A DNA stretch of 28,630 nt from a bacterium (GCA_030427705.1 JAUIBR010000002.1:1-28630), one strand, 5' to 3'; counted from the first letter of the stretch, positions 2,579 through 18,731 are shown. A program made the numbers and translations. Notes: a model not told the origin generated them from the letters alone.

Positions 2579-2724
2579 ACTCCACAAAAATTGACCAAAA
2601 TTGCCCGGCTTTCTGCCTAGTCAGATTTGCCGAGGTCGATTATATTTCTTGGCACTCGAACCCAAGTTTATTCCTACGCCCCTTGGGCGAAATTGAATTA
2701 CGTATCCTCAAGAGCCAGGTTGCT

Positions 2725-3351
2725 ATGAGAAAGGCTACAAGCCTATTGGCCTTTGCCGCGGTTGCTCTCTGCCTTTTGTTCCCCAGCGCAGGATTTGCGC
2801 AGGCGGAAGACTATGCCGCAAAAGTGGTCCAAAATCGCAAATTCGACCCGACCCACGAGTTCGGGGTTAATCTGGGATGGCTACCGCTAGACGCCTTCAC
2901 GAAGGGCATCTCGGTGAGCGGCCAATACACCCTCCACTTCAGCGAGTCCTGGGCTTGGGAAGTGGTTCAGTTCTTCTACTCGTTCCAATACGACACGAGT
3001 CTTGCCGACGAGCTGGAGGACTTTGACCTGGCACCGACCCCGTTTGAGATTGTCGATTTCTTCGTCACTTCAAACGCTGTGTGGAAACCCCTGTACTGGA
3101 AAGGCTCTTGGCTAAACGACACGCTGACCTACGGGGAGATCTTCTTCGTCGCAGGTGGTGGCTATGGCTGGCTGACCCGGAGCGCCCGCCCTGCATTCGA
3201 CGCAGGTGGTGGTTTCCGTATCTACGCCGGTCCGTTGTTCAGCTTCCGTTTTGACATGCGTTACTTGATGTTCATCGGAGACAACATCTTCGAGGACTTC
3301 GACGTGAAAGACGAACTTTGGCTTGGAATTGGGACGTCCATTGCATTCTAG
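2725..3351 (+). CDS. small outer-membrane beta-barrel protein (OmpA-less barrel, ~190 aa mature)
   Basis: An ATG lies at 2725 inside track ORF 2683..3351. The signal-peptidase-I signal peptide is MRKATSLLAFAAVALCLLFPSAGFAQA/ED. The body shows alternating hydrophobic/aromatic beta-strand patterning. The C-terminal residue is Phe (..GIGTSIAF), as in outer-membrane beta-barrels. Confidence 0.6.
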   Translation: MRKATSLLAFAAVALCLLFPSAGFAQAEDYAAKVVQNRKFDPTHEFGVNLGWLPLDAFTKGISVSGQYTLHFSESWAWEVVQFFYSFQYDTSLADELEDFDLAPTPFEIVDFFVTSNAVWKPLYWKGSWLNDTLTYGEIFFVAGGGYGWLTRSARPAFDAGGGFRIYAGPLFSFRFDMRYLMFIGDNIFEDFDVKDELWLGIGTSIAF

Positions 3352-4789
3352 AAACACAATACTCGCGGCGGCGCTGCTGGGGGTTCTGTTGTTTTTGAAC
3401 AGTGGATGCTCTTCAGTTTCGCTCGCGACGGACCGCGACGCGGTCTACAAACAGGCGGTCGAAGCCTCTCTGGAGGGCGAGCATGCGCTCGCTGGGGCTG
3501 CGGCAAATCGCTATATCTCGGGCTCCTCCACGGATGATCCACGCTATGACCGTGGCCTTCGTATCCTCGCTGAAAGCGCCGAGAAACTTGGATTCACTTA
3601 CGCCGCGTCGCTCTGGTACCTCGAGATTGCCGAGTCGCGTCGTGACGTCGACGTCACTGACGAGGCCGTGCGCGGGCTTGAGCGTATTATGGCCACCGAC
3701 GGATATGACGAAGGCACCATCCTCCAAGGCTTCCTCGGCTCCGACGATATTTCAGGGCTTCCGCCCGAGCAGATGGCTTTCGTGAAGTTCCATCAAGGCG
3801 TCAACAGCCTTCGACGTGGTGTTCGCGACTGGGCAATCCTACAATTTGAACAGATTCCGGACGGCAGTTCGTACCAGGTTCGAGCCCAATACGTCCTCGC
3901 AGTAGACAAGCTTCAGAAATACCAACTCTCGGATGCCCGTGAGGACCTCGAGCTCATCCTGGAACGGGACGAAGACAAGCGTCTGCCGCTGGATCTTCGT
4001 AATGACATTCAACGAACACTCGCTCGAATCGCGTTTGAGCAGGCTCGCTACAAAGACGCCATCGAACTCTATACCGAGCTCCGAGAGACCGCGCCCGATG
4101 ACCCGGGGCTGCTTCTGGAGATGGCGTGGAGCCACTACTACAACCAAGAGTATGAACGTGCGCTCGGTCTGCTCATCGCGCTCGACGCACCCGCCTACCG
4201 TGGTCTCATCGCTCCTGAGCGCTTCTTGCTCGAAGCGTTGAGCCTTCGACATATTTGCCAATTCGAGCCCGCCCGAAACGCCGCGATTCGTCTGCGACGT
4301 ACCTATGGAGATGCAATCGAGCAGCTCTACGACGGTGTGCCGCTGAAGGAATCGATGCCGCTGCGAAAAGCCGCTCGCGTCCGCACCTCTGACTCACCGC
4401 TTGGAAAGTTCCGCGCCACTGTGGAGCGGGAACAAGCCATGATTGAGGAGCTCGAAGGCGACATCGGCGAGGAATTCTCGAAGCGCCTCAATGAAGTCTA
4501 CAAACAGGGCCTCGTGGAAGCGAAACGTCGAGAGGACGAGGAATTGGTTTTCGAAATGCGTCAGGTTGCTCAAGAGCTACTGGATGCGGAAGAAGGCGTC
4601 CGCTTGATCCTGCACGAACTTGGTGTCGCCTTGCTGCGCGGACGACGTCGTCCTGCTGGCGTAGAGGAACGCATCAAGATCGAGGATACGTTTGGCCGAG
4701 AGAACATCCTCTACCAATTCCAGGGTGAATTCTGGACGGACGAACTGGATGACCTCGTTGTGACGATGGAGGACCGATGTATCGAGTAG
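3323..4789 (+). CDS. TPR-repeat lipoprotein
   Basis: The track ORF is used. The start is uncertain (TTG at 3323 or TTG at 3341). The signal peptide with lipobox is ..HSRNTILAAALLGVLLFLNSGCSS. Helical-repeat (TPR-like) segments are present, e.g. AIELYTELRETAPDDPGLLLEMAWSHYYNQEYERALGLLIAL. Confidence 0.65.
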   Translation: MELGRPLHSRNTILAAALLGVLLFLNSGCSSVSLATDRDAVYKQAVEASLEGEHALAGAAANRYISGSSTDDPRYDRGLRILAESAEKLGFTYAASLWYLEIAESRRDVDVTDEAVRGLERIMATDGYDEGTILQGFLGSDDISGLPPEQMAFVKFHQGVNSLRRGVRDWAILQFEQIPDGSSYQVRAQYVLAVDKLQKYQLSDAREDLELILERDEDKRLPLDLRNDIQRTLARIAFEQARYKDAIELYTELRETAPDDPGLLLEMAWSHYYNQEYERALGLLIALDAPAYRGLIAPERFLLEALSLRHICQFEPARNAAIRLRRTYGDAIEQLYDGVPLKESMPLRKAARVRTSDSPLGKFRATVEREQAMIEELEGDIGEEFSKRLNEVYKQGLVEAKRREDEELVFEMRQVAQELLDAEEGVRLILHELGVALLRGRRRPAGVEERIKIEDTFGRENILYQFQGEFWTDELDDLVVTMEDRCIE

Positions 4790-7700
4790 CAAAGCACACT
4801 TTGCTTGGGCTCGCGATGGTTCTAGCGCTATCGAGCTGTGCCTCGGAGCCCCAGCAGTTGCAGGACACCCCGACAGTCGAGGTCCTGCGTCTCAATATCA
4901 CCAAGGTTCGAAACGCCATCGCCGAGACGCGCGCAACCATCGCGGTCTCCCGTGGTGCGCCCTACCTTCCTGAATTCTATGTGCGTCTTGCCGAGCTTCT
5001 CAGTGAAGAAGCGCGATACCACTACCAGCTGGCGTACGAACGTGAACAGCGCTCAACGAAAGTGCTTCACGTGCCGCAAGTCCGCTTGCTGAAAGAGGAT
5101 GCGATCAATACTTACGAGATCGTGTTGAGCCGTTTCCCGGACTCACCGCTCGTCCCACGCGTTCTTTTCAATATTGGCCACGAACATCGTGAACTCGGTA
5201 ATTTCGACGAAATGCGAAAGGTCTTGAACCGGCTCGTCGATAACTACCCAGATTCCCCGCTTCGTGCGGATGCTCTCATCGTGTTGGGTGACTACCACTT
5301 CGACCGAAATGAACTGCCAGATGCGCTGCGCTACTACGAAGAGATCGCGAAAGGAGAGCTGACGCCAGTCACTGGTCTTGGCCACTACAAACTCGCTTGG
5401 GTTTGGGTCAACGAGGGTGAGTGCAAGCCCGCGCTCGACAACTTCGAGAAAGCGATCGAACGCTCCAACGATTGGGCCGAGCGTATGCGTAAGCTCGCAT
5501 TGCAGAAGATTGAGACTCCGCTCTTGGTTCAGGCCGAAGCTGGAGACGAGATTACGACTCAGCAGGATATCGATGTTCGACGCGAATCCCTGGTCGACCT
5601 TGCGTACTGCTATTCACGCCTGCGAAAGCCCCAAGATTCGGTCAAATTCCTTAAGAAGTATGCCTACAACCGAGAGACCTACGTCGCTGCGCTCAATAAG
5701 TTGGCGAATCGCTATCGCACCATGGACCAATTCCAGGGTGCGGTGCTGATCACCCGAGAATTGTTGAGTTTGGGTGCTGCGAATATCGACCGACTCGACG
5801 ACGCGCGGACGTTGTACACGTCGATCAAGAAGTTGAAGGACTACCGAACCATCGGAGTAGATGCGGAGCTGATTGGTGACTCGCTGACCAATTACTACAG
5901 CCGTGTGAACATCAAGGCCGACGAACGAGAGCGATTGGTCAAGGAATTCGAAGTCTACCTTCGTGACCTCGCCACGACCTCACAAGAACGGATGATCAAG
6001 AAGCGTCGCAAGTCTGCTGGCCCCGAGGACGTGGCACGAGCGTACAAAGCCTACCTCGACACCATTCCCGTCAGCGACAAACGACCCGACATGCTTCTGA
6101 ACTACGCAGACCTTCTGGGTTCAAACGGTCAAGAACTTGAGGCAGGTGTGCGGTCGATGGAGGCTGCAGATTTGCTGGAAGACGACGGACAGCGCCGCGA
6201 CGCACTTTACGACGCGGTCGTCTACTTCCAAGCGTCGCTCGCCAAAGAAAGCGACCGCCTGCGCTACGAGCGCGTTGCGGCCCGCTCGGCGCTTCGTCGT
6301 GCCGGCGCCACCCTGCTCTCGTACAAGCTCAACGAAGAGAAAGAGCGACGTGTGAAGTTTGCCATCGCGCAGGCTATCTACGACGAGGGCCTCTATGTTG
6401 AGGCTATCGATAAGCTCTCTGCCGTCGCCTACGAGTTCCCGGGCACGGATGAGGCTGACGCCGCGGTGAAGTTGACGTTGGACAGCTTCAATACGCTCAA
6501 TGATTACGACGGCCTGATGTACGCCAGTCGCCGATTCTTGAGTGCAGGAAGCCCGGTTTCAGACAAGCTGAAAGGCGAAATCAAACGAATCCAGGGTGCC
6601 GCAGAACAGCGCAAACTTGACGAGCTCGCCCTGGCAGCAGCTGGTGAAGATGGGGCAGATATCTCGCCACTCATCGCCTTCGCCGAGAAGAACAAAGGTA
6701 CTGACCTTGGGGAGCGTGCTCTTATCAACGCGTTCGTCGCGGCCCGCGCCACCGGCGACACCGAGAAGATGTACAAGCTCGCCGATTCGATGGCGAAAAC
6801 CTATCCGAAGAGCGACCAGCTTCCCGGTATCTACACGACCTTGGCCCAGACGGCGGTCGCGCGCTTTGACTACGACACAGCAATCCGGTTCATGAAGCGG
6901 GCTGCGGACGTCAACCCATCGCAGCGCATCCGACTGCTCATCGCCGCAGGCGAGCTGAACGAACAGCTCGGCGAACCGAAGAAGGCTGAGAAGCTCTTCG
7001 ACGAAGCCCTCAGTGACAACAATCCGCAGTCGCAGGCCGACGCCTTGGAGCGCTTGTCTTCGATGATTGAAAAGTATGACGGCGTCGATTCGGTCAAACG
7101 CAAACTGAACTCCTACACCGACCAAGGAGAGCCAGAAACCAACTCACGAATTGGACTGGCGATGATTGGAGCTGGAAACGCAGAGGAAGGCGAGATGCTC
7201 TTGCAGAGCGTCCTGAACAACGATTCGGCGTCTGGTGAGGCGCTCGCTCGCGCCCACTTCGGAATGGGCGAGTTGATGCTCAATGTCATCAACCAGTACC
7301 CAGACCCTGAGGATGTCGACCTCATCGAGGAATTCATCATCCTCATCGACGTTATGCAGCAGAGCTACCTGAACGCGGCTCGGCAAGGCAGCTACACGTA
7401 TGCCGCGGCTTCGCTGTCACGCCTTTCTTCTGCGCTCATCTCGGTTTCTAAGAAACTGAGCCGAATGAAGATGCCGGACGGATTGACGGGGGCTCAGAAG
7501 CAACAGGTCAAAGCAGCGCTCGACGCGCGTGTCGAAGGTCTCGAGCAGAGCGCTTCCGAAGCGCTCACCGCTTGTGGGAATCAAGCCTGGACGGCTGCGA
7601 ACTTCACTCCACCCGTGCGTGACTGTCTCAAAGGCAACGCGTTGGATGGAATCGAGGTCAAGTTCGACCAGGTGAAATCCCGAAGTGCGAAGGCCCCGAA

Positions 7701-8058
7701 GGGTTTGGACGAGCTCCGTGCTGAGCTTTCCAAGAACCCTGAGAACGTCGATAAGCTGCGTGAGCTTGCAGAGAAGTTCCTGGATGCCAAAGACCCCCAC
7801 TCGGCGCGACTGGTGCTCGCACGAGCGATTCAGGTTGGCGGTGGTGCCCTTGAGCAGAATCTCATCGGCGTCGCGTCCTACGAGATTGGCGACGTTGCCT
7901 CAGCGTTTGATGGGTTCGCGCGAGCCGCCGAAGGTGGACTCGAAGCGGGTCGAACAAACATGAAGACGTTGCTCAAGAAGGAAGGCCTTTCCAAGCAGGT
8001 CAGTGAAGTGGATAAGCGATTCCAGAAAGGCCGTGACGGCGGGAGGTTGATCAAATGA
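4777..8058 (+). CDS. large (1093 aa) TPR-repeat lipoprotein
   Basis: The ATG at 4777 is preceded by GGAGG. The signal peptide with lipobox is MYRVAKHTLLGLAMVLALSSCAS. Many TPR-like repeats are present (..ALIVLGDYHFDRNELPDALRYYEEIA.., ..GHYKLAWVWVNEGECKPALDNFEKAIE..). Its size class and architecture are like GltD/NfsD-type periplasmic TPR scaffolds (inference). Confidence 0.8.
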   Translation: MYRVAKHTLLGLAMVLALSSCASEPQQLQDTPTVEVLRLNITKVRNAIAETRATIAVSRGAPYLPEFYVRLAELLSEEARYHYQLAYEREQRSTKVLHVPQVRLLKEDAINTYEIVLSRFPDSPLVPRVLFNIGHEHRELGNFDEMRKVLNRLVDNYPDSPLRADALIVLGDYHFDRNELPDALRYYEEIAKGELTPVTGLGHYKLAWVWVNEGECKPALDNFEKAIERSNDWAERMRKLALQKIETPLLVQAEAGDEITTQQDIDVRRESLVDLAYCYSRLRKPQDSVKFLKKYAYNRETYVAALNKLANRYRTMDQFQGAVLITRELLSLGAANIDRLDDARTLYTSIKKLKDYRTIGVDAELIGDSLTNYYSRVNIKADERERLVKEFEVYLRDLATTSQERMIKKRRKSAGPEDVARAYKAYLDTIPVSDKRPDMLLNYADLLGSNGQELEAGVRSMEAADLLEDDGQRRDALYDAVVYFQASLAKESDRLRYERVAARSALRRAGATLLSYKLNEEKERRVKFAIAQAIYDEGLYVEAIDKLSAVAYEFPGTDEADAAVKLTLDSFNTLNDYDGLMYASRRFLSAGSPVSDKLKGEIKRIQGAAEQRKLDELALAAAGEDGADISPLIAFAEKNKGTDLGERALINAFVAARATGDTEKMYKLADSMAKTYPKSDQLPGIYTTLAQTAVARFDYDTAIRFMKRAADVNPSQRIRLLIAAGELNEQLGEPKKAEKLFDEALSDNNPQSQADALERLSSMIEKYDGVDSVKRKLNSYTDQGEPETNSRIGLAMIGAGNAEEGEMLLQSVLNNDSASGEALARAHFGMGELMLNVINQYPDPEDVDLIEEFIILIDVMQQSYLNAARQGSYTYAAASLSRLSSALISVSKKLSRMKMPDGLTGAQKQQVKAALDARVEGLEQSASEALTACGNQAWTAANFTPPVRDCLKGNALDGIEVKFDQVKSRSAKAPKGLDELRAELSKNPENVDKLRELAEKFLDAKDPHSARLVLARAIQVGGGALEQNLIGVASYEIGDVASAFDGFARAAEGGLEAGRTNMKTLLKKEGLSKQVSEVDKRFQKGRDGGRLIK

Positions 8059-8822
8059 AACACCTCATCCTGATTCTCATTCTGACGTTATTGGTTCCGA
8101 TTGGTTGCGGAAGTTCGGTTAAACCAATCGACCTTCATGACCCCAACGTCCCACTCGATGCGCGTCGCTTCGTCGCTGACGCACAAGACGCTGTATCGAT
8201 TGCTAGAGCACGTCGTGACGAGGCTGCAGATCGCCTTGCGTTTGCAGAGAACTGGCAAGACGAAGTCACGACACCAGAGCTCTGGCCGAAGGGCTCAGAC
8301 GCCATCCTGCAAAAGCTAAAGACGTTTACGCAGGCTCGCGTCGACATGAGTGAGCTGGAGTTTGAACAGGCATCGGCCAAGCTGGACTTGGCGGAGGCCA
8401 AATACGACCTTTCGACCGCACAGACTGCGATGCGAAACGACCTCGCCGTCTATGATCTTGAACCGCTGAAGGCTCGCGCCGAGTCAATTCGTGGGGAAAT
8501 CGAGACGCTCTCAGGAAAGATCGAGGACCAACGCCTCAAGTTGGACAAGCTGACGCTGGACTGGTGGAAGTCCTACAGCAAATTCGCCGGCGATAAGGAA
8601 GTTCGCGCTTTCTACGTATCTCCGCAACTCTTCGCTGAACTGAAAGCCCGTGATGCCGACCTCAAGGCCAAGCGTGCTGAGAAGAAGAAGCAGGACGAAA
8701 AAGACGCCAAGGATAAGGACAAAAAGAACGCCGACAAAGACGCCAAGAAGGACGACACGCCGGCTAAGAAACCCTCGGAAGAGAAAATTACCGAGGATGA
8801 TGCGATTGACTTGGACCTCTAG
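8055..8822 (+). CDS. coiled-coil lipoprotein with Lys/Asp-rich low-complexity C-terminus
   Basis: The ATG at 8055 overlaps the upstream stop (ATGA), with GGGAGG 8 nt upstream. The signal peptide with lipobox is MKHLILILILTLLVPIGCGSS. Heptad-like coiled-coil segments are present. The tail is KKKQDEKDAKDKDKKNADKDAKKDD. Confidence 0.7.
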   Translation: MKHLILILILTLLVPIGCGSSVKPIDLHDPNVPLDARRFVADAQDAVSIARARRDEAADRLAFAENWQDEVTTPELWPKGSDAILQKLKTFTQARVDMSELEFEQASAKLDLAEAKYDLSTAQTAMRNDLAVYDLEPLKARAESIRGEIETLSGKIEDQRLKLDKLTLDWWKSYSKFAGDKEVRAFYVSPQLFAELKARDADLKAKRAEKKKQDEKDAKDKDKKNADKDAKKDDTPAKKPSEEKITEDDAIDLDL

Positions 8823-8854: not shown

Positions 8855-9367
8855 TCAGTCGCAAGGATTTGCGGGGACTTCTTCATTGAACTCACACGGA
8901 GTCACAATGGACTTGTCCTGTCCGTCTGCGACCGTCTCCGCGCACACTGGCACAACAAGCTGAGGGAAGTTCCCTGCATCGCTCTCGATGACCAGAGCAA
9001 TAGCATCGCGTCCAGGGTTCTCGCGCTCATAGGTAAGTCGGAAGGCGTATTGCTCACCCCCGTTGACCTTTGATGGCAGTGGGTCCTCGGACTCCAAAAT
9101 CCAATTGGAGTTGATGACACCCTGGTTGCCGATAAGGCACGCCTTTTCGATGTTGATCGCTGCGTTCTCGGCCTCGACCAACAAGGCAAACTCGTATGGA
9201 ACGCGTTCGTTGGAGCCTGGCTCGGCGTCATTAGCGCCCTGAGGCCAGAGCTTCCCGAGGTTTACAGGTGAGACGGCAGGCAGAATGTCTCCGCCCTCTT
9301 CGTCCGACGATCCACATCCGAAACACAAACAGGACGCGGCACACAGTGCGAAATACTTCGCTTTCAT
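8855..9367 (-). CDS. lipoprotein of unknown function (last gene of minus-strand operon)
   Basis: The signal peptide with lipobox is MKAKYFALCAASCLCFGCGSSDEE. AAGGA lies upstream of the ATG. It lies 24 nt downstream of the pseudokinase-TonB-like gene. Confidence 0.7.
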   Translation of the reverse strand: MKAKYFALCAASCLCFGCGSSDEEGGDILPAVSPVNLGKLWPQGANDAEPGSNERVPYEFALLVEAENAAINIEKACLIGNQGVINSNWILESEDPLPSKVNGGEQYAFRLTYERENPGRDAIALVIESDAGNFPQLVVPVCAETVADGQDKSIVTPCEFNEEVPANPCD

Positions 9368-9391: not shown

Positions 9392-12300
9392 TCAGCCAGA
9401 TTTGAAGATGAATGGGAACTTGATGATGACTTCGCCGCCTTTCGGACGTGGGAACTTCATCCCTTTGATGACGCCGCTCACGCACTTGGAGACTTGAGCG
9501 CTGCCCAGTGAGTTGCCTTTCTCTTTGACCGCACCCACACGCCCGTTGGTCTTCACAGTCCATTCGAATGTCAGCTTACCGCCCAACGACGGATTTTTGT
9601 TGAGCTCTTTCTCGTAGCACCGTTGGATCTTGCCCATCGAACCCTGGATAACCTCCCAGACTTGGGAGCGAGACAGCGTACCTTGGACTTTGGCGAGTGC
9701 TTTGACACCACGCGCCTTGCCGCGGACCTTGCCAGATTTCTCGCGCGCTTTGAGCTTCCCGGTGCCGCCATCGACAGAGCCACCGATGTCACCAATCTTG
9801 CTGCCACCTGGGTCGCGAGCAATGTTGACCTTGCCGCCTTCAAGCGCGCCCAACGTACCGGTGACGTTAAACGCTGCATTTGAAGCTCCTGGCTTCGCCA
9901 CTGCGTCGATATTCGTGACCACGTCTTTGATGGTTTTGCCCTCCCCTTTCTGCGGGGTGGTGAGGGCTGCCATCAGACGGTCGGCCTTGTCCTCGTTCTT
10001 TGTCGATTTGTTTCGAAGTCGCTTATCAAGCTGCTTTCGAACCGACTTAGGAATCTTCGCTTTAGCCTCGGTCGGGTCGACCGGTTTCTTTTCCGATAGC
10101 TTCTTTGGCTTCGGCTTTTTCTTCTTCGGCTTTGGCTTCGGCTTCGGCTTTTTCTTCTTAGGCTTATCGAGCTTGCCTTCGGCGAATACCTCGACCTCAT
10201 CAGGACGGTTGATGGTGAGATTCATACCAAGCTCGGCACTAAGCAGCGCGCCCAACATTCCGAGCCCATGGAGCACCAACGAGATAGCGAACGCGATGCC
10301 GTAAATCTTCAGTTCTTGGGGCGTGAGCAGTCGCTGATCACGCGATGGTGGCTGTGGAGGTCGGAAAAAGCGGACGTAATACTTCAGCCCATCTTCCTCG
10401 AATTCGACAGCATCTCCGGGCTTCATCGACAGCTTGTCACGGTCGCCCAGGTTTTCCTTCGGCGCATTTGCCAGGCGGACCCAGCCTTGTACGGGCTTTT
10501 TGAACTTCAAGGTCGCCGAACCACCACTCTTCGTTGCTGAGAACGACGAACCAGGTCGCTTGTAACGCCCGAGCCCCCGAATCACCGTGATGTCTAGCGG
10601 CGCATCGGCAGCGGTTCGAATGATCTCCAGCACCGGTTTGGTATTGGATTCTTTCGGCGCGAGTTCTGGAGGCTCCACGATAAGGTCGATCGGGAACGGT
10701 TCAAAGAACGGTTCCTCATCTTCGTCATCCTCGTCGAGCGGCAGAAACTCAGGCATGAATTTCTGGGGTTCCGGAGCGGGCGCTGCTTGCGCTGCTTGCG
10801 CAGGCGCAGGTTCCGGTTGTGGCGCAGGTGCGGGTTCTGCGGCGGCTGGAGGCTGCGTCTCCGCGAGCTCGTCCTCAAAGCCCGCAGGAACGTCCTCCGG
10901 TGTCTCCGGCATCGGTTGCGGTTTGTACGCTGCGTGCGTCACCGCGGGGTCTTCCCCAATCCCAAGCGCTTCTGGAACGTCTTCGAACATCGGATTGGGC
11001 GCGACATTGGTTTCAGCCCGATCCGCGTCTTCCATCCGAGTTTCCAAACTTGGAGTTCCGGTCGGTAGCGTCTGTGCGAGGTCTTCGTCTGCCCATTGAA
11101 GGTTGGGTACGTCATGAGGAAGTGTGGTCTCGGCTGGATTGCCAAGGGGCGCGGACGTCATGACCGTTTGGTCGTCGTCGCTACCCGCGGCTTCCATGAG
11201 CCGAGAAACCTCTGCTGCCGACGTTTGGACCGTCGGTTCCTCTGCAACCGGGTCGTCCCACATTCCGGCCAGCTTATCGGCGGCCGCACCAATCGGGGCG
11301 GCATCCCAGCCTTCTCCTACCGGATTAGGCTCGCCATCCAAGATGCCGAGCGCTGCATCAACGTCCTGCGCAAACTGGGCGACCATATTGCCGTCGATGC
11401 GATCTGTGTGGGACTCGGCAGTTTTAGGCGCGGTCTGTTGAGCCCGAAGCGCGGCAGCGTGATTTTGATTTGTTGCATCAACCGTCGCGTCGTTGATTTG
11501 GAACAACGACATCGCAACATCGCCAGCACCACTAAAGTCACCGGCGCGGGACTTCTGCTCTAGCGCTTTCCATCGCTCAAGCCGTTTCGGGAACAGCTGC
11601 GACATGATCCGCGGAACGCGTTCCAAAGCCTTGGATGGGTCGCTAGCGAGCTTTCGCAGCGCGACCGCCATGTGTTCAGCATTTTGGAAGCGATCGTCTG
11701 GACGGCGCTCCAGCGCGCGAAGAACGATGCTATCTAATCCTGGAGTTACCTTCGCGTTGTAGGCCGAAGGAGGCTGAATCGGTTGCTCACAAATCGCTTT
11801 TGCAACATCGCCACCTTCGAAAAGTCGACGCCCGGTCAACAGTTCCCAAAGGACCACAGCAAGCGAAAAGACGTCACTTCGCGGCTCAGCAGGACGACCC
11901 CGGACTTCCTCAGGAGACATGTAGGCGATGCGGTCGACCGCCATGGGCGCAACATTATTCAAGTGCGCCTGGCGTATACCCTTGGCGACTCCAAAATCCT
12001 GCAGGACAACGTTGCCCTCGTAACTAAGCGCGATCGTGTGAAAATCGATGCCACCGTGCACGACCTTGAGCGACCAACCGGCAGCGTTTTTCGCTGTATG
12101 GGCGTGGTGCAGGGCTTCGGCAGTGACCGTCGCGAGCGAGATTGCGAGAGGAATCGTCAGGGTTTCATAGCCCCGGCGACGCAGCTCGTCGAAGAAGTCG
12201 CGTAGGGTTTCGCGAGAGTTGATGTCCTTGATGAACCAGACAACGCCGCCCTCTTTGCCAGCGGCGAACGTCGTTTCAATGTTTGGATGCTTGAGCTGCA

Positions 12301-12493
12301 TTGCGAGCTGCAGCTCATAGTCGAGGACCGTATCGACGCCAGGAGCGCTGGCAACTTCGCGTGGAAACGACGTCGCGCGAACAATCGGCAACTGGTCGTA
12401 GTCTGGCTCTCGGTTTTTCCCAATCCATGTCTCGTGCAGACCGTCCTTGGTCAATTGCGCGAGCATGTCGAATTTGGTTAGGACCGTCGTCAT
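9392..12493 (-). CDS. inner-membrane protein with an N-terminal degenerate Ser/Thr protein kinase (pseudokinase) domain, one TM helix, a periplasmic Lys/Pro-rich linker and a C-terminal TonB-C-like domain
   Basis: The 1033-aa ORF has an ATG start that overlaps the upstream stop (ATGA). Residues ~8-285 have a PknB-like kinase fold (DFG, SPE, RSDVFSLAVVLWELLTG, RFQNAEHM), but the catalytic motifs are replaced (see findings). The region of residues 520-720 is an acidic/Pro-rich linker followed by a small beta-rich module. The TM helix is IYGIAFAISLVLHGLGMLGALLSAELG. The Lys/Pro linker is KPKKKKPKPKPKPKKKKPKPKK. The C-terminal ~95 aa is basic and beta-rich, ending in ..GEVIIKFPFIFKSG, typical of TonB/TolA C-terminal domains. 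Confidence 0.85.
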   Translation of the reverse strand: MTTVLTKFDMLAQLTKDGLHETWIGKNREPDYDQLPIVRATSFPREVASAPGVDTVLDYELQLAMQLKHPNIETTFAAGKEGGVVWFIKDINSRETLRDFFDELRRRGYETLTIPLAISLATVTAEALHHAHTAKNAAGWSLKVVHGGIDFHTIALSYEGNVVLQDFGVAKGIRQAHLNNVAPMAVDRIAYMSPEEVRGRPAEPRSDVFSLAVVLWELLTGRRLFEGGDVAKAICEQPIQPPSAYNAKVTPGLDSIVLRALERRPDDRFQNAEHMAVALRKLASDPSKALERVPRIMSQLFPKRLERWKALEQKSRAGDFSGAGDVAMSLFQINDATVDATNQNHAAALRAQQTAPKTAESHTDRIDGNMVAQFAQDVDAALGILDGEPNPVGEGWDAAPIGAAADKLAGMWDDPVAEEPTVQTSAAEVSRLMEAAGSDDDQTVMTSAPLGNPAETTLPHDVPNLQWADEDLAQTLPTGTPSLETRMEDADRAETNVAPNPMFEDVPEALGIGEDPAVTHAAYKPQPMPETPEDVPAGFEDELAETQPPAAAEPAPAPQPEPAPAQAAQAAPAPEPQKFMPEFLPLDEDDEDEEPFFEPFPIDLIVEPPELAPKESNTKPVLEIIRTAADAPLDITVIRGLGRYKRPGSSFSATKSGGSATLKFKKPVQGWVRLANAPKENLGDRDKLSMKPGDAVEFEEDGLKYYVRFFRPPQPPSRDQRLLTPQELKIYGIAFAISLVLHGLGMLGALLSAELGMNLTINRPDEVEVFAEGKLDKPKKKKPKPKPKPKKKKPKPKKLSEKKPVDPTEAKAKIPKSVRKQLDKRLRNKSTKNEDKADRLMAALTTPQKGEGKTIKDVVTNIDAVAKPGASNAAFNVTGTLGALEGGKVNIARDPGGSKIGDIGGSVDGGTGKLKAREKSGKVRGKARGVKALAKVQGTLSRSQVWEVIQGSMGKIQRCYEKELNKNPSLGGKLTFEWTVKTNGRVGAVKEKGNSLGSAQVSKCVSGVIKGMKFPRPKGGEVIIKFPFIFKSG
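9395..9676 (-). other. TonB-C-like C-terminal domain
   Basis: The C-terminal ~94 aa follow the proline/lysine-rich spacer and are periplasmic by topology. Composition and length resemble TonB_C/TolA_C. An HMM search is needed to confirm. Confidence 0.5.
10226..10306 (-). other. single transmembrane helix of the 1033-aa protein
   Basis: Reverse-complement translation gives LKIYGIAFAISLVLHGLGMLGALL. It is followed by the KP-repeat linker encoded at ~10094..10168. Confidence 0.7.
11639..12472 (-). other. kinase-like (predicted pseudokinase) domain of the 1033-aa protein
   Basis: The catalytic-loop segment VVHGGIDFHTIAL is encoded at 12026..12064 (checked by reverse-complement translation). It takes the place of the canonical I-V-H-R-D-x-K-x-x-N. 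Confidence 0.7.
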
Positions 12494-13005
12494 TCCTTCT
12501 TACCCTTCAACTTCTTCGATTCGCCTTCCTTCTGGATCTCCTTCTCTGCTTCGACTTTCGTTTTCTCGAATTGTTCCACTTGTTCTCGGCCGAGCACGTT
12601 TCGAACCGTCAGTGAAAGGTAGCTGTCGCGCTTCTTTACCATGGATGGCAGTGGTCGAGGCGCACGTTGAAAAAGGAAGACTGCGCCGGATCCTGCGGTC
12701 TCACCGCGAATCAAGCGACCATCGAACTCCATCCGGTTTCCGCGTTGGAGTGTGGCTGCTTCGACTTGTTCGCCCGCTTCTTCTTCGCCCTCTTCGCCTT
12801 CCTCGCCTTCTTCACCCTCTTCCTCATCTTCCTCGTCTTCCTTGTCCTTCTTCTTTTTCTTCTTTTTGGACTGAGCGAGGATGATTTGATCGCCTGATCC
12901 ATCAAGGATCTTTAGACCGCTATCTTGCGCCGATGCATTGGTCGAAAATGTGACCAATGAGAGCGCGATGAGTACGAGTAAGATGTGCTTTGCCATGGGG
13001 CTCAC
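12490..13005 (-). CDS. secreted protein with a poly-Lys / (Glu-Glu-Gly)n low-complexity segment
   Basis: The signal peptide is MSPMAKHILLVLIALSLVTFSTNASA/QD. The start may be the GTG at 13005 or the ATG at 12996. The low-complexity run is KKKKKKKDKEDEEDEEEGEEGEEGEEGEEE. There are 4-nt overlaps with both neighbours. Confidence 0.6.
   Translation of the reverse strand: MSPMAKHILLVLIALSLVTFSTNASAQDSGLKILDGSGDQIILAQSKKKKKKKDKEDEEDEEEGEEGEEGEEGEEEAGEQVEAATLQRGNRMEFDGRLIRGETAGSGAVFLFQRAPRPLPSMVKKRDSYLSLTVRNVLGREQVEQFEKTKVEAEKEIQKEGESKKLKGKKE
12766..12870 (-). repeat. coding low-complexity repeat (poly-K then (EEG)n) within the secreted protein gene
   Basis: It is visible in the DNA as ..cttcttcgccctcttcgccttcctcgccttcttcaccctcttcc..cttctttttcttctttttgg. 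This is coding sequence, not a CRISPR or SSR locus. Confidence 0.6.
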
Positions 13006-13484
13006 TTCTTCATGATCGCAAGGCGATACTTGTCAAAACCTGCCATACTGGCAGACCGCATAACGAGATACAGCGTCTGGTAATCCAAGCCTTTGTCAGC
13101 CTGAATCAAGACGATTGCCGGATCTTCTTCGTTTTCGGGGTCTTCGATGGCGAGAATCCGCTCACGCTCTTCCTTGAGCAGCTCAACGACCTCGGGAATC
13201 TCGCCGTCGGAATAATACTGTTCGTCGAATTTGCCGCGATTGAGCGTCATGACCTTCTTGCCATCGAGCTTTAAATCAACTGGCGTAATCGCCAGGTTGA
13301 CCGCCGGCTTCAGGACCGATTGCGCTGATGACTCAGGAAGTTTGAGGTCTGAATCGAGTTTGAACTCGTAATCTTCAGCCTCGAAGCTGACGATGAGGAA
13401 AATCAGGATGATGGTGAACATGTCCAGAAGGGACGTCAGCATCAGGCCTGCAGGCTTCTTCTCTCTGGCGAAGCGACTGTTCAC
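13002..13484 (-). CDS. exbD: ExbD/TolR family biopolymer-transport (proton-motive-force stator) protein
   Basis: At 160 aa it has a short cytoplasmic N-terminus. The TM segment LMLTSLLDMFTIILIFLIV contains the conserved protonatable Asp (aa 21, codon 13422..13424). A periplasmic domain follows. It has a GTG start and 4-nt overlaps on both sides. Confidence 0.85.
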   Translation of the reverse strand: MNSRFAREKKPAGLMLTSLLDMFTIILIFLIVSFEAEDYEFKLDSDLKLPESSAQSVLKPAVNLAITPVDLKLDGKKVMTLNRGKFDEQYYSDGEIPEVVELLKEERERILAIEDPENEEDPAIVLIQADKGLDYQTLYLVMRSASMAGFDKYRLAIMKK

Positions 13485-14101
13485 TCTTCGCCTCCTTCAT
13501 CCATCTCCATCTCTTCTTCGCCGCCAGCTTCACCTTCGCCCTCAGGGTCTTCGCCCTCATTGATGGGGTTCTCGGTGATCTTGCGACTAAAGATGGTCAC
13601 AGGGAAAAGGTCTTCGCGGACGTCTTCACCATCTTTGTCTTTGCCCGTCACATGGTTACGCGTGTGGTCGAGAATCTCGACCAGGTCTTGGTATCCAAGC
13701 TTTTCATGGGGCAATACGGTGATGGTGTTTGACTCGGGATACTGTCCTTTGATGTCCAAGAGCGCCGCTTGCACGTCTTTTACGGGGTACTTCCCGGCCT
13801 TCTTACCCCACTCGCCAGAGAGTGCCGTAAGTTGCTCTTCGCTCAAACTCACACTCGCTGCCGAAATCGCAATCGTATCCACATCGATTTCCATGTTCAC
13901 AGCCACCGTGGTCGGCGTCTTGGGAACATCGGAGTCCGATGGACTCAACGTAGGCGTCGAGGTCGGAATCACGCCGATATGGAAGAAGGTCGCGCCCAAC
14001 AGAAGGAACGGAATCAAGACCATGAACAGGTTCATGACCGGGACCACGTTCAAGTCTGCAGCGGCCTCATCGGCGGCAGATTTGAATCGACTAAAAGCCA
14101 C
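13481..14101 (-). CDS. ExbD/TolR-like paralog with Asn in place of the conserved TM Asp and an acidic C-terminal tail
   Basis: It is 206 aa. The TM segment DLNVVPVMNLFMVLIPFLL aligns to ExbD ..NVTPFIDVMLVLLIIF.. with Asn24 (codon 14030..14032, checked) at the Asp position. The C-terminus is EGEDPEGEGEAGGEEEMEMDEGGEE. Confidence 0.8.
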   Translation of the reverse strand: MAFSRFKSAADEAAADLNVVPVMNLFMVLIPFLLLGATFFHIGVIPTSTPTLSPSDSDVPKTPTTVAVNMEIDVDTIAISAASVSLSEEQLTALSGEWGKKAGKYPVKDVQAALLDIKGQYPESNTITVLPHEKLGYQDLVEILDHTRNHVTGKDKDGEDVREDLFPVTIFSRKITENPINEGEDPEGEGEAGGEEEMEMDEGGEE

Positions 14102-14111
14102 GAGTTACGTC

Positions 14112-14837
14112 CTAGCGTTGGGCTCGACCATCTGTGCCCGAGTCGCCTCGAACACCAGCGATTGCTACTAGAACCGAACTTGCGCCGCCTTCCATTTCCA
14201 ACAAGATCGTTTCGACCCGTTTGGAAAGAAGGTGGTGGAAAAGCAAGAGCGGAACAGCAACGGAAATCCCGAAAGCCGTCGTGTACATAGCTTGGGAGAT
14301 ACCGTCGGCAAGTGCTGCCTGTCGTTCCGCGGCGGACGCGGCGGCCACACTCGAGAACGCGGCAATCAGACCGAAAATCGTACCCAACAGCCCGAGCAGC
14401 GTCGCGATATTGGCCATCACGGCCATGATCGCCACTCGCTTCTGGAGCTGAGGGATGGCGGCCAGCATCTCGTTCTCCATCGCACGCTCGATCTCTTTCT
14501 CGCGGCGGTTGGAACGAAGAAGGCCGGCCTTAATCACGGCAACCAACGGATGCTTTGAGCTGGCCTCAGTTGCATCGATGGCTTCCCGGAATCGCCGGTT
14601 TTCGACCTGGCTGACGACCCGTGCAACGAAGTTTCGCGCATTGAGCCGCCGTAGCAGGTAAAGGTTAAAGGCGCGTTCTAGGAACATCGCCACCCCGATC
14701 ATCGAGACGATCAGGATGACGTACATCATCCAACCGCCCTTATCGAGGTACTCCAGCAGAACGTTACCGCCCCCAGCCTCTTCCGCAGCAGCTTGTGCGA
14801 GAATTGGCGTCACAAAACTTTGAATCGTCGGAAGCAT
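14112..14837 (-). CDS. exbB: ExbB/TolQ/MotA family proton-channel protein
   Basis: It is 241 aa with three predicted TM helices (..WMMYVILIVSMIGVAMFLE.., ..AIMAVMANIATLLGLLGTIFGLIAAF.., ..AMYTTAFGISVAVPLLLF..). It lies immediately upstream of the two exbD-like genes. Confidence 0.85.
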   Translation of the reverse strand: MLPTIQSFVTPILAQAAAEEAGGGNVLLEYLDKGGWMMYVILIVSMIGVAMFLERAFNLYLLRRLNARNFVARVVSQVENRRFREAIDATEASSKHPLVAVIKAGLLRSNRREKEIERAMENEMLAAIPQLQKRVAIMAVMANIATLLGLLGTIFGLIAAFSSVAAASAAERQAALADGISQAMYTTAFGISVAVPLLLFHHLLSKRVETILLEMEGGASSVLVAIAGVRGDSGTDGRAQR

Positions 14838-14981: not shown

Positions 14982-16952
14982 CTAGAGCCCGGAATCTGGC
15001 GAAATCACAGGCCGAACGTACTCTGAGTCTTCGATCAGGATGATCGCGTCGTCTGGAATTCGACGATTGGGTGGCAGATATTGAATCTGCAACTGCGCCA
15101 TTCGGAACGGTCCCGGAGCCAACGGTCGACCTTCTGGCCCCTGCGCAAAGAACAACAACACATTGTTGATTCCTGGATTATCGGGGTCGTCATCCAACGC
15201 AATCGTCGGCATCAACTGAATGTTCCGAATCGTGTATTGAAGGCACTGGCGGTCCCGGAAAACCACGCGGATCGACTCGGTGTCGTCGGCGATTGGGAGG
15301 TTATTGGGGTCAACGCGCACCCGAATGTACTTGCCTTCCTCACGCTGAATAGCCGCGAATGACGAAGACGTCAGGCGGAACTCTCCTCCCGATGAAACCG
15401 GAACCGGCCGTCCTGGATCTGGGTCGTTCGAGTCCTGCCAAGCAAGGGTGCGATTTGCTGCATTCCAACGCAGCGTCCCAATACCTGCCGTCGTCCCATC
15501 GCTGATTTCGGTCACGATCACGCCCGTGATGCGCTCAGGATCGCTAGCGAAGAGTTCACGCGAAAATCCTTCATCAACAACGTCGTAGCGATAGCCGAAC
15601 GATAGGTGAGCTCTCGTATCTGTGGATCGTGGGTCACTATGCTGAAGCAGCTCGTCGCCGTTGTTCACCCCGTCACCATCGGTGTCATTCTCAGCGTCGC
15701 GGTTCAGGTAATCCGTGCCCGAGAGCACCTCCAATGGGTCAGGCATGCCATCACCATCGGTATCCACCAGAGTGGGCTCCGTGCCTAGCAGCGCTTCATC
15801 ACAATTGGTGAGGGTATCGAGGTCCTCATCGGCACCGGGAATCATATTCTGACATGCGGTTGGGAATGGGTCTTCAGGCACAAGCGGATCCAGCCCGGCG
15901 AAGGACTCCACACGGTCCGAGATACCATCAAAATCGGTGTCTCGGTTCCCCGGCGAGGTGCCCAGCGATTCTTCTTCAGCATCCGACAGGCCGTCCGCAT
16001 CTGAATCGATGACAGGTCCGTCGGGGCCTGGCTTCGCGTTCAGGTTTGCCGCCAAGAGCAACTTCGCATTCAAGACCGTACGTAGGCCGAGCAAATCGAA
16101 CGCACTGGCCGATACCCCGTCGATATTATTGTAGCGCTGGTACACGCCACCGCCCGCGAACGCCATCTGTTCAAGCGCCGCTTGTTCGGAGTCGTTGATC
16201 GCCAGATTCGGCGCGACCTCAGCGGCGAAGTGGATGGGGTGGTAGCGCAATCCTGCAGCTCCCTGCTCCACGACCGTCTCACGTAGATCGGTGATCTCTT
16301 CAACACTCAAGGCCAGGTTACATGCGGCGCTCGGGCCCATGTTGGCGTCCTGACACTGTGTATCGTCAGGCAAGCAACACTCGGCGCCATCGGCGAGCGG
16401 TTCATGCTGGCCCGCGTTGACGTGAATGATGATGTATTGCGTTAGGACGCGCAGACCTGCCGGCGTGTTGGCGATATCGCCTTCGATCAATGCCCGCGCC
16501 GTGCGAAGCGCTTCCCGATAATCCCGACATTGTCCAACGCCAGCGCAGGTTTGCGGCAGTGACGTCGCCGTTACCGCGGCGAAGAGCTCGCCCGGGTTGC
16601 GGGTGAAGTTGCCTTCCTGGGGCGCCAATTTTCGAGGAATGCCGCCATAGCCAATGACGGCCATCTCGGTCTGGTCGCCATTGAGCGCCTTTTGAACGAA
16701 ATCGTTCATGTAGATGACGCGCTGGCTCGCAGCATCAAAGCTTGAGAACAGGGGTCCAGGTGCCTGGTCTACCAAGAGGACAATCTTGATCGGGAACTCC
16801 GCCTCAAACGGGTCCTCGGAACACGCGCGCCCACTCATCGCGAGGCGGCTTGCCTCTTTCTTCGGCTTTGCCGGGCTGTACAAACTGGTGTCGGTGCAGC
16901 TGATGCCCATCAGCGCAGCCAAAAAGACCGCGATTAGCGCTTTGACGTTCAC
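14982..16952 (-). CDS. lipoprotein with thrombospondin type-3-like Ca-binding repeats
   Basis: It has a GTG start. The signal peptide with lipobox is MNVKALIAVFLAALMGISCTD. Four D-x-D-x-D-G-x-x-D-x-x-E motifs are present (DSDADGLSDAEE, DTDFDGISDRVE, DTDGDGMPDPLE, DTDGDGVNNGDE). Its stop overlaps the upstream lipoprotein gene. Confidence 0.8.
   Translation of the reverse strand: MNVKALIAVFLAALMGISCTDTSLYSPAKPKKEASRLAMSGRACSEDPFEAEFPIKIVLLVDQAPGPLFSSFDAASQRVIYMNDFVQKALNGDQTEMAVIGYGGIPRKLAPQEGNFTRNPGELFAAVTATSLPQTCAGVGQCRDYREALRTARALIEGDIANTPAGLRVLTQYIIIHVNAGQHEPLADGAECCLPDDTQCQDANMGPSAACNLALSVEEITDLRETVVEQGAAGLRYHPIHFAAEVAPNLAINDSEQAALEQMAFAGGGVYQRYNNIDGVSASAFDLLGLRTVLNAKLLLAANLNAKPGPDGPVIDSDADGLSDAEEESLGTSPGNRDTDFDGISDRVESFAGLDPLVPEDPFPTACQNMIPGADEDLDTLTNCDEALLGTEPTLVDTDGDGMPDPLEVLSGTDYLNRDAENDTDGDGVNNGDELLQHSDPRSTDTRAHLSFGYRYDVVDEGFSRELFASDPERITGVIVTEISDGTTAGIGTLRWNAANRTLAWQDSNDPDPGRPVPVSSGGEFRLTSSSFAAIQREEGKYIRVRVDPNNLPIADDTESIRVVFRDRQCLQYTIRNIQLMPTIALDDDPDNPGINNVLLFFAQGPEGRPLAPGPFRMAQLQIQYLPPNRRIPDDAIILIEDSEYVRPVISPDSGL
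15633..16010 (-). repeat. coding region of the four TSP3-like calcium-binding repeats
   Basis: Coordinates come from residue numbering (aa ~315-440). Confidence 0.55.
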
Positions 16953-17509
16953 TGCTCTCCTCCGACCTCGGGAATCATCTCGCAGAATGGCTCAGTTGCG
17001 GGCATTGCCGGATCTGGCTCAGTACCAGGCTCCGAGTTACATGCGCCGCGGTCATCACCCAGCTCGATAGTAGTGCACTGCCCATCGCCATAACAGGTCT
17101 GGCCAATGGGACAGCTAATACGCAGGCACGACCGGGTAATGCCCATCGAAATCGAGATATCATCGCCTTCTTCGGCGTTCAATCGGCGCTCAAAGGTGGA
17201 AACAACCGCGCCACCTTTCAAACCTTGAAGGACGACCCACCCATCGGGCGGAACCTCAGTGAAATTGAATGACGTTGGAAGTGAAGTAACCTTTTCTTCG
17301 CCGTTAACACACGTGGCCAAATCTTCGGCGCCGTCCACCTCGATGTTCGCGCGTTCGGAGTCGTAGATCAGAACTTTGTAGCCATCGACCTCAAGCGGAA
17401 TCTCGACATCACCGCAAACCTCAAGGTTGAGATTCGCTCCCTCGGCAAAACACCCTGTCAGCGACCACGCAAACAGCATCAGCCCGAGGGTCAATACGCG
17501 CATTTTCAT
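16949..17509 (-). CDS. Cys-rich lipoprotein (first gene of minus-strand operon)
   Basis: The signal peptide with lipobox is MKMRVLTLGLMLFAWSLTGCF. The mature part has 9 Cys (..RSCLRISCPIGQTCYGDGQC..). AGGAAA lies upstream of the ATG. There is a 4-nt overlap with the next gene. Confidence 0.7.
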   Translation of the reverse strand: MKMRVLTLGLMLFAWSLTGCFAEGANLNLEVCGDVEIPLEVDGYKVLIYDSERANIEVDGAEDLATCVNGEEKVTSLPTSFNFTEVPPDGWVVLQGLKGGAVVSTFERRLNAEEGDDISISMGITRSCLRISCPIGQTCYGDGQCTTIELGDDRGACNSEPGTEPDPAMPATEPFCEMIPEVGGEQ

Positions 17510-18721: not shown

Positions 18722-18731
18722 TTTTGTCTCC

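Follow-up and report, generated by a model that had tools for sequence, protein, structure and literature searches.

A predicted pseudokinase at the cytoplasmic end of a TonB/TolA-like transducer in a Glt/Nfs-like gene cluster of a Bradymonadales-like bacterium

What is a kinase fold, stripped of its catalytic residues, doing at the cytoplasmic end of a TonB-like energy transducer? The question is raised by a gene on the minus strand (9392..12493) of a 28,630-nucleotide stretch of bacterial DNA (GCA_030427705.1 JAUIBR010000002.1:1-28630; hereafter the window, meaning this stretch at its full length), whose source is a Bradymonadales-like member of the Myxococcota. An earlier note, made from the sequence alone, had described the product as a TonB-like transducer fused to a cytoplasmic pseudokinase. 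The 1033-residue protein consists, from the N to the C terminus, of a Hanks-kinase fold, an acidic Pro/Ala-rich linker, an FHA-like beta-sandwich, a transmembrane (TM) helix, a (KP)n stretch, a conserved periplasmic segment, and an AgmX/PglI C-terminal domain, and its gene holds the GltG position in a cluster of ~14 genes that resembles the Glt/Nfs 'core complex'. Our reading, to which we assign a probability of roughly 0.7, is that the protein, whose cytoplasmic end is a dead kinase, is the TonB/TolA-like output subunit of an envelope-spanning machine that belongs to the Glt/Nfs 'core complex' type and runs on the proton motive force.

The first 330 residues (11504..12493, minus strand) form a catalytically degenerate kinase-fold domain with a C-terminal helical extension. 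Pfam Pkinase (PF00069) matches residues 59-270 above its gathering score (E 1.6e-16), AlphaFold2 (AF2) models residues 1-330 as a confident and fully packed kinase fold (pLDDT, the predicted score of the local distance difference test, 93.3; predicted template-modelling score, pTM, 0.92), and PknB structures rank first when this model is submitted to Foldseek (best E 8e-17, TM-score ~0.8 on the target). All three agree with the kinase fold that the earlier note had claimed, and every motif string it quoted is present in the open reading frame (ORF). At the HRDxKxxN position, the protein reads HGGIDFHT (residues 146-153; 12035..12058, minus strand, inside the range 12026..12064 given previously), and a phmmer search against PDB sequences places VVHGGIDFHTIALS opposite the PknB catalytic loop IIHRDVKPANIMIS. 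In the PknB alignment none of the three residues, catalytic Asp, loop Lys, and Asn, is retained, and the columns of the HRD Asp and loop Asn hold Gly148 and Thr153. The beta3 (VAIK) lysine is absent, as had been proposed: Arg39 (12377..12379, minus strand) occupies its column in both MAFFT and hmmalign alignments. The Gly-rich loop reads DGLHE, as compared to GGMAE in the nearest active kinases. DFG (residues 166-168; 11990..11998, minus strand) keeps its Asp in the window protein, and SPE (residues 193-195) is retained.

Seven full-length orthologues, 48-92% identical and originating from Bradymonadaceae, Microvenator, and other Bradymonadales metagenome-assembled genomes (MAGs), keep the whole architecture, and all of them begin with MTTVLT or MTxxL; counts out of eight refer to these seven plus the window protein. 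HGG, Asp150, Glu60, and an NAAGWSL insert are invariant in all eight. The beta3-Lys column, on the other hand, is occupied by Arg in six sequences, His in one, and Thr in one, the catalytic-loop Asn column holds T, V, or A, and the Gly-rich loop elsewhere becomes EENGW or GDRGW. The earlier statement that the fold-defining motifs are kept therefore applies to DFG in the window protein and its two closest orthologues, but not to the other five of the eight, in which the DFG Asp is Glu. Profile and structure-based alignments both put Arg, His, or Thr at the VAIK Lys and Gly at the HRD Asp, so that the alternative register raised in the earlier note, with a catalytic Lys or Asp elsewhere, was not found by either. 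A WNK-like relocated lysine was weighed and discarded: Lys16, near the Gly-rich loop, varies, and since no Lys or Arg is invariant within residues 1-130 of the eight-sequence alignment, there is no conserved lysine of this type. Because the Gly-rich loop, beta3 Lys, HRD Asp, loop Asn, and, in most sequences, the DFG Asp are lost, the domain is predicted to be incapable of phosphorylation, and by these residues we classify it as a pseudokinase, that is, a kinase fold that has lost its catalytic-triad residues and is maintained by selection.

Where this domain came from was read from an alignment of 44 kinase domains, comprising the window protein, the seven orthologues, and 36 of the nearest active kinases. 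The active kinases carry GGMAE, VVxK, HRDVSPxN, DFGVAKA, and YMSPEQ, and an AHxxxDxxGxxL insert preceding the catalytic loop is already present in the nearest active Myxococcota kinases. Because these active relatives share both the motifs and the insert, we derive the window family from the Myxococcota HRDVSPxN kinase clade. Many of the closest free-standing Myxococcota kinases (P0008-P0032) contain tandem kinase domains, at residues ~10-300 and 400-680.

The kinase/transducer fusion is a broad, mostly metagenomic family and not a singleton. An exhaustive HMMER search with residues 600-1033 as query against 1.84 billion cluster representatives returned 150 matches at E < 1e-30 and 3136 at E < 1e-10; it superseded a word-indexed search with residues 595-1033, which gave 20 matches and missed known orthologues, presumably through Lys/Pro low complexity. 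Among the best 150 matches, a kinase-like N terminus was recognized in 27 by a kinase HMM and in 29 by a family-specific HMM, and all ten family representatives that were checked are metagenomic singletons. The catalytic columns were read in 30 family members. While the HRD His is kept almost always, the catalytic Asp is found in only 2 of the 30, the beta3 Lys in 9, and the loop Asn in 7, and the loops themselves vary widely (HGG, HGA, HGD, HGH, HDx, HKG, HRG, HAN, HSC); the HGG loop is thus invariant among the eight closest sequences but heterogeneous over the family. Five members (P0126, P0159, P0175, P0181, P0190) retain fragments of the kinase-like domain only. P0192 alone has every motif (GGMGE, VALK, Glu, HRDVSPSN, DFG), and its gene lies in the same operon context (L009). 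As judged from these columns, catalytic decay is the rule for the kinase version of the protein.

Could the window domain nevertheless be an atypical active kinase, in which Arg39 serves as the beta3 Lys and Asp150 as the catalytic base? The alphaC Glu60 and Asp150, which lies two residues after the HRD-Asp column, are invariant in all eight sequences, DFG is intact in three of them, and P0192 shows that an apparently complete kinase can occupy this operon context. A relocated active site is nonetheless very unlikely given that the Gly-rich loop has gone and its sequence varies, the column proposed to supply the lysine is not conserved, and Gly sits at the catalytic-Asp column of a loop whose HGG never changes among the eight, with the loop Asn and most DFG Asp residues replaced as well. 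The heterogeneous losses over the 30 members argue in the same direction, as they look like relaxed catalytic constraint rather than a new conserved active site.

The varied decay of the catalytic motifs, together with the five members in which only domain fragments survive, would also be expected if the kinase-like domain were in decay and without function, the remnant of a kinase fusion that was once active. Conservation of the remainder of the domain makes this extremely improbable. Within the Bradymonadales, residues 1-330 contain ~70 invariant positions, with an overall identity of 48-52%, and the ratio of nonsynonymous to synonymous substitution rates (dN/dS, Nei-Gojobori) as compared to the closest relative, L013, comes to 0.023 in the kinase-like domain and 0.025 in the C-terminal one, values that are approximate, with dS saturated (>1; one region not computable), yet far below 1. 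A dN/dS of ~0.02, the same as that of the C-terminal domain, indicates that the dead domain is maintained by selection, and its model is that of a fully packed kinase fold (pLDDT 93).

If the domain is a maintained pseudokinase, what is it attached to? An acidic cytoplasmic linker (residues 331-615; 10649..11503, minus strand) follows it, and the Pro/Ala-rich composition described earlier is borne out by 21% Asp plus Glu, 14% Pro, and 17% Ala. Four short motifs in the linker are invariant in all eight sequences, namely TLPTG (475-479), THxAYKPxPMP (519-529), EPFxEPF (594-600), and APEL (608-611), and the remainder is divergent; none of these short motifs was seen in the distant L005 protein. 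In P0006, THxAYKPxPMP is tandemly duplicated.

A second AF2 model, covering residues 600-1033, resolves the small beta module that the earlier note had placed after the linker into an FHA-like beta-sandwich (residues 621-710; 10364..10633, minus strand; pLDDT ~90), although the window protein has no sequence match to Pfam FHA. The membrane is crossed once, as had been claimed for 10226..10306: a hydropathy scan finds a single TM segment with its hydrophobic core at residues 731-753 (10235..10303, minus strand), AF2 predicts a helix at 725-754, and S738-x3-H742 is invariant within it. A strict SHLS motif was rejected for this helix, in which Leu and Ser are shifted by one residue and only S-x3-H fits. 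On the periplasmic side, the (KP)n linker of the earlier note is present as a Lys/Pro-rich stretch read from the sequence (residues 777-798; 10100..10165, minus strand), and it is followed by a segment (residues 805-907; 9773..10081, minus strand) that is near-invariant in sequence yet predicted to be disordered (pLDDT < 50).

The protein ends in an AgmX/PglI C-terminal domain with the fold of the TonB/TolA C-terminal domain (residues 925-1033; 9395..9721, minus strand). The corresponding NCBIfam model matches above its cut-off (E 2e-28), AF2 gives an alpha/beta domain at residues 925-1032 with pLDDT above 90, and Cys959 and Cys1004 are invariant in all relatives aligned. Because a PDB sequence search with the C-terminal 312 residues returned chance-level matches only, this half was compared by fold, and Foldseek with the 600-1033 model returned the same two fold classes, FHA-like and TonB-like, with weak E-values. 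The TonB-C-like domain of the earlier note therefore stands by the AgmX/PglI profile and by fold, but neither Pfam TonB_C nor TonB_2 matches the window protein at E <= 0.1.

This layout closely follows that of a known gliding protein. Myxococcus xanthus GltG has two FHA domains, one N-terminal and one immediately ahead of the TM helix, then a disordered periplasmic segment predicted to become ordered around GltD, wrapping it, and a TonB-like C-terminal domain, while GltJ carries ZnR and GYF domains (PMC11761067), in agreement with the FHA or ZnR/GYF modules that the earlier note gave for the TonB-like components of Glt/Nfs machines. As in GltG (PglI) and its paralogue NfsG, the transducers of the Agl-Glt gliding and the Agl-Nfs spore-coat machine, an FHA-fold module immediately precedes the one TM helix of the window protein, the periplasmic segment is long and Pro-rich or disordered, and the C terminus is an AgmX/PglI domain with the TonB fold; its gene is likewise linked to those of one TolQ-like and two TolR-like proteins and of TPR lipoproteins, and the core has no further TM protein apart from the motor. 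Its beta module resembles the second FHA domain of GltG in fold, and the conserved yet disordered segment at 805-907 parallels the GltD-wrapping segment. The two proteins part ways at the N terminus, where the ~110-residue FHA domain (PF00498) of GltG is replaced by a 330-residue pseudokinase and a 285-residue acidic linker. GltJ (AgmX) is also a single-pass TM protein with an AgmX/PglI TonB-like C terminus and a cytoplasmic interaction region on disordered linkers at its N terminus. Its ZnR and GYF domains, however, bind MglA-GTP and AglZ, it has no predicted motor binding and no FHA-like module before the TM helix, and its model scores lower against the window protein than that of GltG (62 vs 81 bits). 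TonB and TolA of Escherichia coli and other Gram-negative bacteria are more distant still, with few cytoplasmic residues as compared to ~725 here; the window protein further differs from them in its conserved Cys pair, in its missing Pfam TonB_C match, and in the lack of TonB-dependent transporter (TBDT), TolB, and Pal genes in the window.

Replacement of the N-terminal module is seen throughout the family. Of the long relatives without a kinase-like domain (n=61), FHA is found in 33 and TPR in at least 5, and 7 are recognized by Pfam TonB_C or TonB_2. A further class (P0147, P0155, P0158, P0173, P0177, P0178, P0122) begins with ~300 residues of helical repeats, starting MDPRTxELVRxLQ...LAKLLEWW, mostly without a Pfam match, though a few members have TPR matches. 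As FHA, kinase, pseudokinase, and helical-repeat N termini all occur on one chassis, the cytoplasmic module is interchangeable, and the constant chassis is the FHA-like module, the TM helix, and the TonB-like C-terminal domain. The position is filled by FHA in GltG and NfsG, by an intact kinase in P0192-like members, and by a dead kinase in the Bradymonadales and many other lineages. P0192 combines a Hanks kinase fold and a TonB-type C terminus at the same operon position as the window gene, and retains the GGMGE, VALK, and HRDVSPSN motifs, all three of which the window protein has lost. P0118 (1026 residues; 'TonB family protein' at JGI) also joins a Hanks kinase fold to a TonB-type C terminus in one polypeptide, but differs in having a receiver domain, intact kinase motifs, and a canonical Pfam TonB_C domain.

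The genes around the transducer supply both a motor and envelope components. On the minus strand the order is a lipoprotein (16949..17509); a TSP3-repeat lipoprotein resembling MtsD and CglD, the first large gene of the operon (14982..16952); an ExbB/TolQ/AglR-like proton channel (14112..14837; Pfam MotA_ExbB E 4e-28, TolQ E 1e-18); two ExbD/TolR-like stator subunits (13481..14101, Pfam ExbD E 4e-11, and 13002..13484, E 3e-13); a secreted 171-residue protein at a GltF-like position (12490..13005); the transducer; and a conserved 170-residue lipoprotein downstream (8855..9367). Successive 4-nt ATGA/GTGA overlaps connect exbD1, exbD2, the 171-residue gene, and the transducer gene. The translational coupling to exbB-exbD-exbD claimed earlier thus holds as a chain that takes in both exbD genes, but the 171-residue gene, itself translationally coupled and lying between exbD2 and the transducer gene, had been missed. 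A convergent operon on the plus strand (2683..8822) encodes an OMP_myx_plus beta-barrel (2683-3351), a GltC-like TPR lipoprotein (3323-4789; profile E 1e-12, below cut-off), a 1093-residue TPR lipoprotein of GltD-like size (4777-8058), and a 255-residue coiled-coil lipoprotein (8055-8822), with a BNR-like lipoprotein and a small lipoprotein ahead of the barrel. The whole arrangement is syntenic in L001, L002, L003, L006, and L013 from the Bradymonadales and in L005, L009, and L011 from distant Myxococcota. Apart from the transducer, every non-motor gene of the cluster encodes a signal peptide or lipobox, which leaves the kinase-like domain as the only sizeable cytoplasmic domain of the system.

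The ancestral 'core complex' of the Glt and Nfs machines, as proposed by Luciano et al., consists of aglR, aglQ, and aglS plus gltC, gltD, gltE, and gltG (PMC3169522), and two-hybrid data place the TM regions of GltG and NfsG in contact with the AglR-like channel (PMC3169522, PMC3858216). The gene content of the window cluster corresponds to this complex. In the window the motor genes share the operon, whereas aglRQS form a separate locus in M. xanthus, and the window cluster has no giant cytoplasmic TPR protein like GltI. Equivalents of GltD and GltE are putative, being assigned by size, TPR content, and position only. Since GltC-like and GltG/J-like similarity is all that was detected among the curated Glt models, the cluster is named Glt/Nfs-like rather than Glt.

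The same neighbourhood bears on whether the protein might instead be a genuine TonB paralogue that energises a TBDT for nutrient uptake and merely has an unusual cytoplasmic extension. This is decidedly unlikely: neither the 28.6-kb window nor the syntenic loci contain a TBDT gene, and the C-terminal domain, unmatched by Pfam TonB_C and TonB_2, is of the disulfide-containing AgmX/PglI type. The ~255 periplasmic residues resemble GltG and GltJ by profile, the closest relatives without a kinase carry FHA as do GltG and NfsG, and its conserved partners, like those in clusters of the Glt/Nfs type, comprise an OMP_myx_plus barrel together with TPR and TSP3 lipoproteins. The protein might alternatively act as the TolA equivalent of a divergent Tol-Pal-like system for outer-membrane constriction or integrity, a proposal that draws on TolQ and YbgF/CpoB as the best profile matches and on the ftsQAZ genes next to the cluster in L011. 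This too is unlikely, as neither TolB nor Pal turned up among the ORFs of the window, the fts genes are not conserved as neighbours (in the window their place is taken by bioBADF), and two TolR/ExbD paralogues, a GltC-like TPR protein, an OMP_myx_plus barrel, and a CglD/MtsD-like lipoprotein are features of the Glt/Nfs type. We accordingly read the transducer as the GltG-position subunit of a Glt/Nfs-type core cluster and not as a nutrient-uptake TonB.

Several points weigh against the reading of this protein as a Glt/Nfs-type output subunit with a dead kinase. The partial profile matches to GltG and GltJ, which address the comparison proposed in the earlier note, fall well below the equivalog cut-offs: the GltG model (NF033760) matches residues 775-1032 with E 9e-23 and 80.7 bits, as compared to a cut-off of 650, and the GltJ model matches with E 5e-17 and 62 bits, as compared to 450. 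The large TPR protein matches no curated Glt model, so that orthology to Glt or Nfs stays putative, and when the neighbours lacking annotation were scanned against NCBIfam at a permissive threshold (E <= 10), none matched GltD, E, F, A, B, H, or K. The cluster encodes no other cytoplasmic protein that could serve as a partner of the pseudokinase. The invariance of Glu60 and Asp150 could be explained by ligand binding or by an atypical function of the domain. Finally, the machine may serve gliding, surface-polymer transport, or some other cellular role; gliding has been reported for cultured Bradymonadales (PMC7188933).

How, then, would an output subunit with a dead kinase work? By homology with the Agl-Glt/Nfs and Tol/Ton systems, we propose that a proton-driven motor is formed by a pentameric ExbB/TolQ-like channel with one copy each of the two different ExbD/TolR-like subunits, and that the TM helix of the transducer, through S738-x3-H742, and the juxtamembrane FHA-like module would dock on it. 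The (KP)n stretch and the conserved unstructured segment would span the periplasm, and the latter, together with the disulfide-containing TonB-fold domain, would grip the TPR lipoproteins beneath the outer membrane, which in turn may connect to the outer-membrane barrel and the TSP3-repeat surface lipoprotein. On the cytoplasmic side, the pseudokinase, on its long acidic tether with invariant short motifs, would stand in for GltG's N-terminal FHA domain and form the cytoplasmic connection. The pseudokinase is most likely a non-catalytic docking, allosteric, or switching module, a range that includes the docking platform suggested in the earlier note.

That different modules share one C-terminal chassis and one operon setting points to a phospho-signalling logic at this position. 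A more specific scheme, which we regard as possible but doubtful, is that the cytoplasmic end is a slot for phospho-signalling modules (an FHA reader, an intact kinase writer, a dead kinase) that gate a proton-driven envelope motor. The ancestral fusion would have phosphorylated a partner or its own linker and so controlled the coupling of motor and transducer, and the pseudokinase would now serve as a conformational switch or clamp. It might bind THxAYKPxPMP or TLPTG in the linker, or a polarity or cytoskeletal factor, and relay its state through the FHA-like module to the ExbB-like channel. If this were true, a motor of the Tol/Ton/Mot class would for the first time be known to be regulated by a bacterial pseudokinase.

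Degenerate kinases are found in other envelope machines, and serve there for scaffolding or recruitment instead of catalysis. The C-terminal pseudokinase of MviN (MurJ) in Mycobacterium tuberculosis and EssB/YukC of type VII secretion in Firmicutes are, like the window protein, degenerate Hanks folds on a membrane protein of an envelope machine, but belong to another phylum, partner machine, and architecture (PMC12599244). In mycobacteria, MviN has a link to FhaA, which contains an FHA domain, and a kinase fold and an FHA fold are thus paired there too. EssB/YukC and MviN are probably the closest functional analogues of the window pseudokinase.

No description of a kinase fold at the GltG position was found in open-access PMC papers or bioRxiv preprints, in keeping with the earlier suggestion that it is undescribed. 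Surveys from 2025 define seven bacterial pseudokinase families (ActPs1-3, GLW, CP1, DYD, DLHK), none of them reported to be Myxococcota-specific or TonB-linked, and as far as the searched literature goes the window family would be undescribed. It would add to those seven a conserved, membrane-tethered family from the Myxococcota, in which naturally active (P0192) and dead versions can be compared. The family also bears on the question of how Tol/Ton/Agl-type motors are joined to the cytoplasm and governed from there. In the Myxococcus gliding machine, no component is less well understood than the cytoplasmic platform, which could not be modelled (PMC11761067). With a pseudokinase as the only sizeable cytoplasmic domain of a compact ~14-gene cluster, the system described here offers a simpler one to study.

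Some further features of the neighbouring genes were recorded. The two ExbD/TolR paralogues are asymmetric at the TM position that we take, from the E. coli ExbD and TolR reference strings, to hold the proton-binding Asp: the first has Asn (VMNLFM) and the second keeps Asp (LLDMFT), in five of five lineages (the window, L003, L005, L009, and L011). The 171-residue protein, which is without a family match, consists of a poly-Lys run, a Glu/Gly-rich run, and a conserved C-terminal ~85 residues (80% identical in L001 and L003), and a gene of similar size occupies its position in L001, L003, L005, L009, and L011. The TSP3 lipoprotein partly resembles MtsD, a protein of Myxococcus cell cohesion (E 2e-36), and CglD, a lipoprotein of gliding (E 7e-10), and is a candidate for the surface-exposed end of the machine. 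In L006 (10001-12829; MAG JAWKQR01), the orthologue of the transducer and its TSP3 and large TPR neighbours are all split into several ORFs, perhaps by assembly frameshifts or by pseudogenisation.

In L011 (1308-5624; GCA_964454015.1, distant Myxococcota), the cluster adjoins ftsZ, ftsQ (POTRA_1), and ftsA, whereas its neighbours in the window are bioB-bioA-bioD-bioF instead. A scan of the window for tRNA genes found none. Between the cluster and the biotin operon lies a DUF1800/DUF1501 gene pair (17591-20057, minus strand), of which the DUF1501 protein starts with a twin-arginine-like MKRREFLQ, and bioB is adjoined by a gene for a 718-residue protein (24355-26511, minus strand) that matches a fused MFS/spermidine-synthase family (NF037959, E 9e-13).

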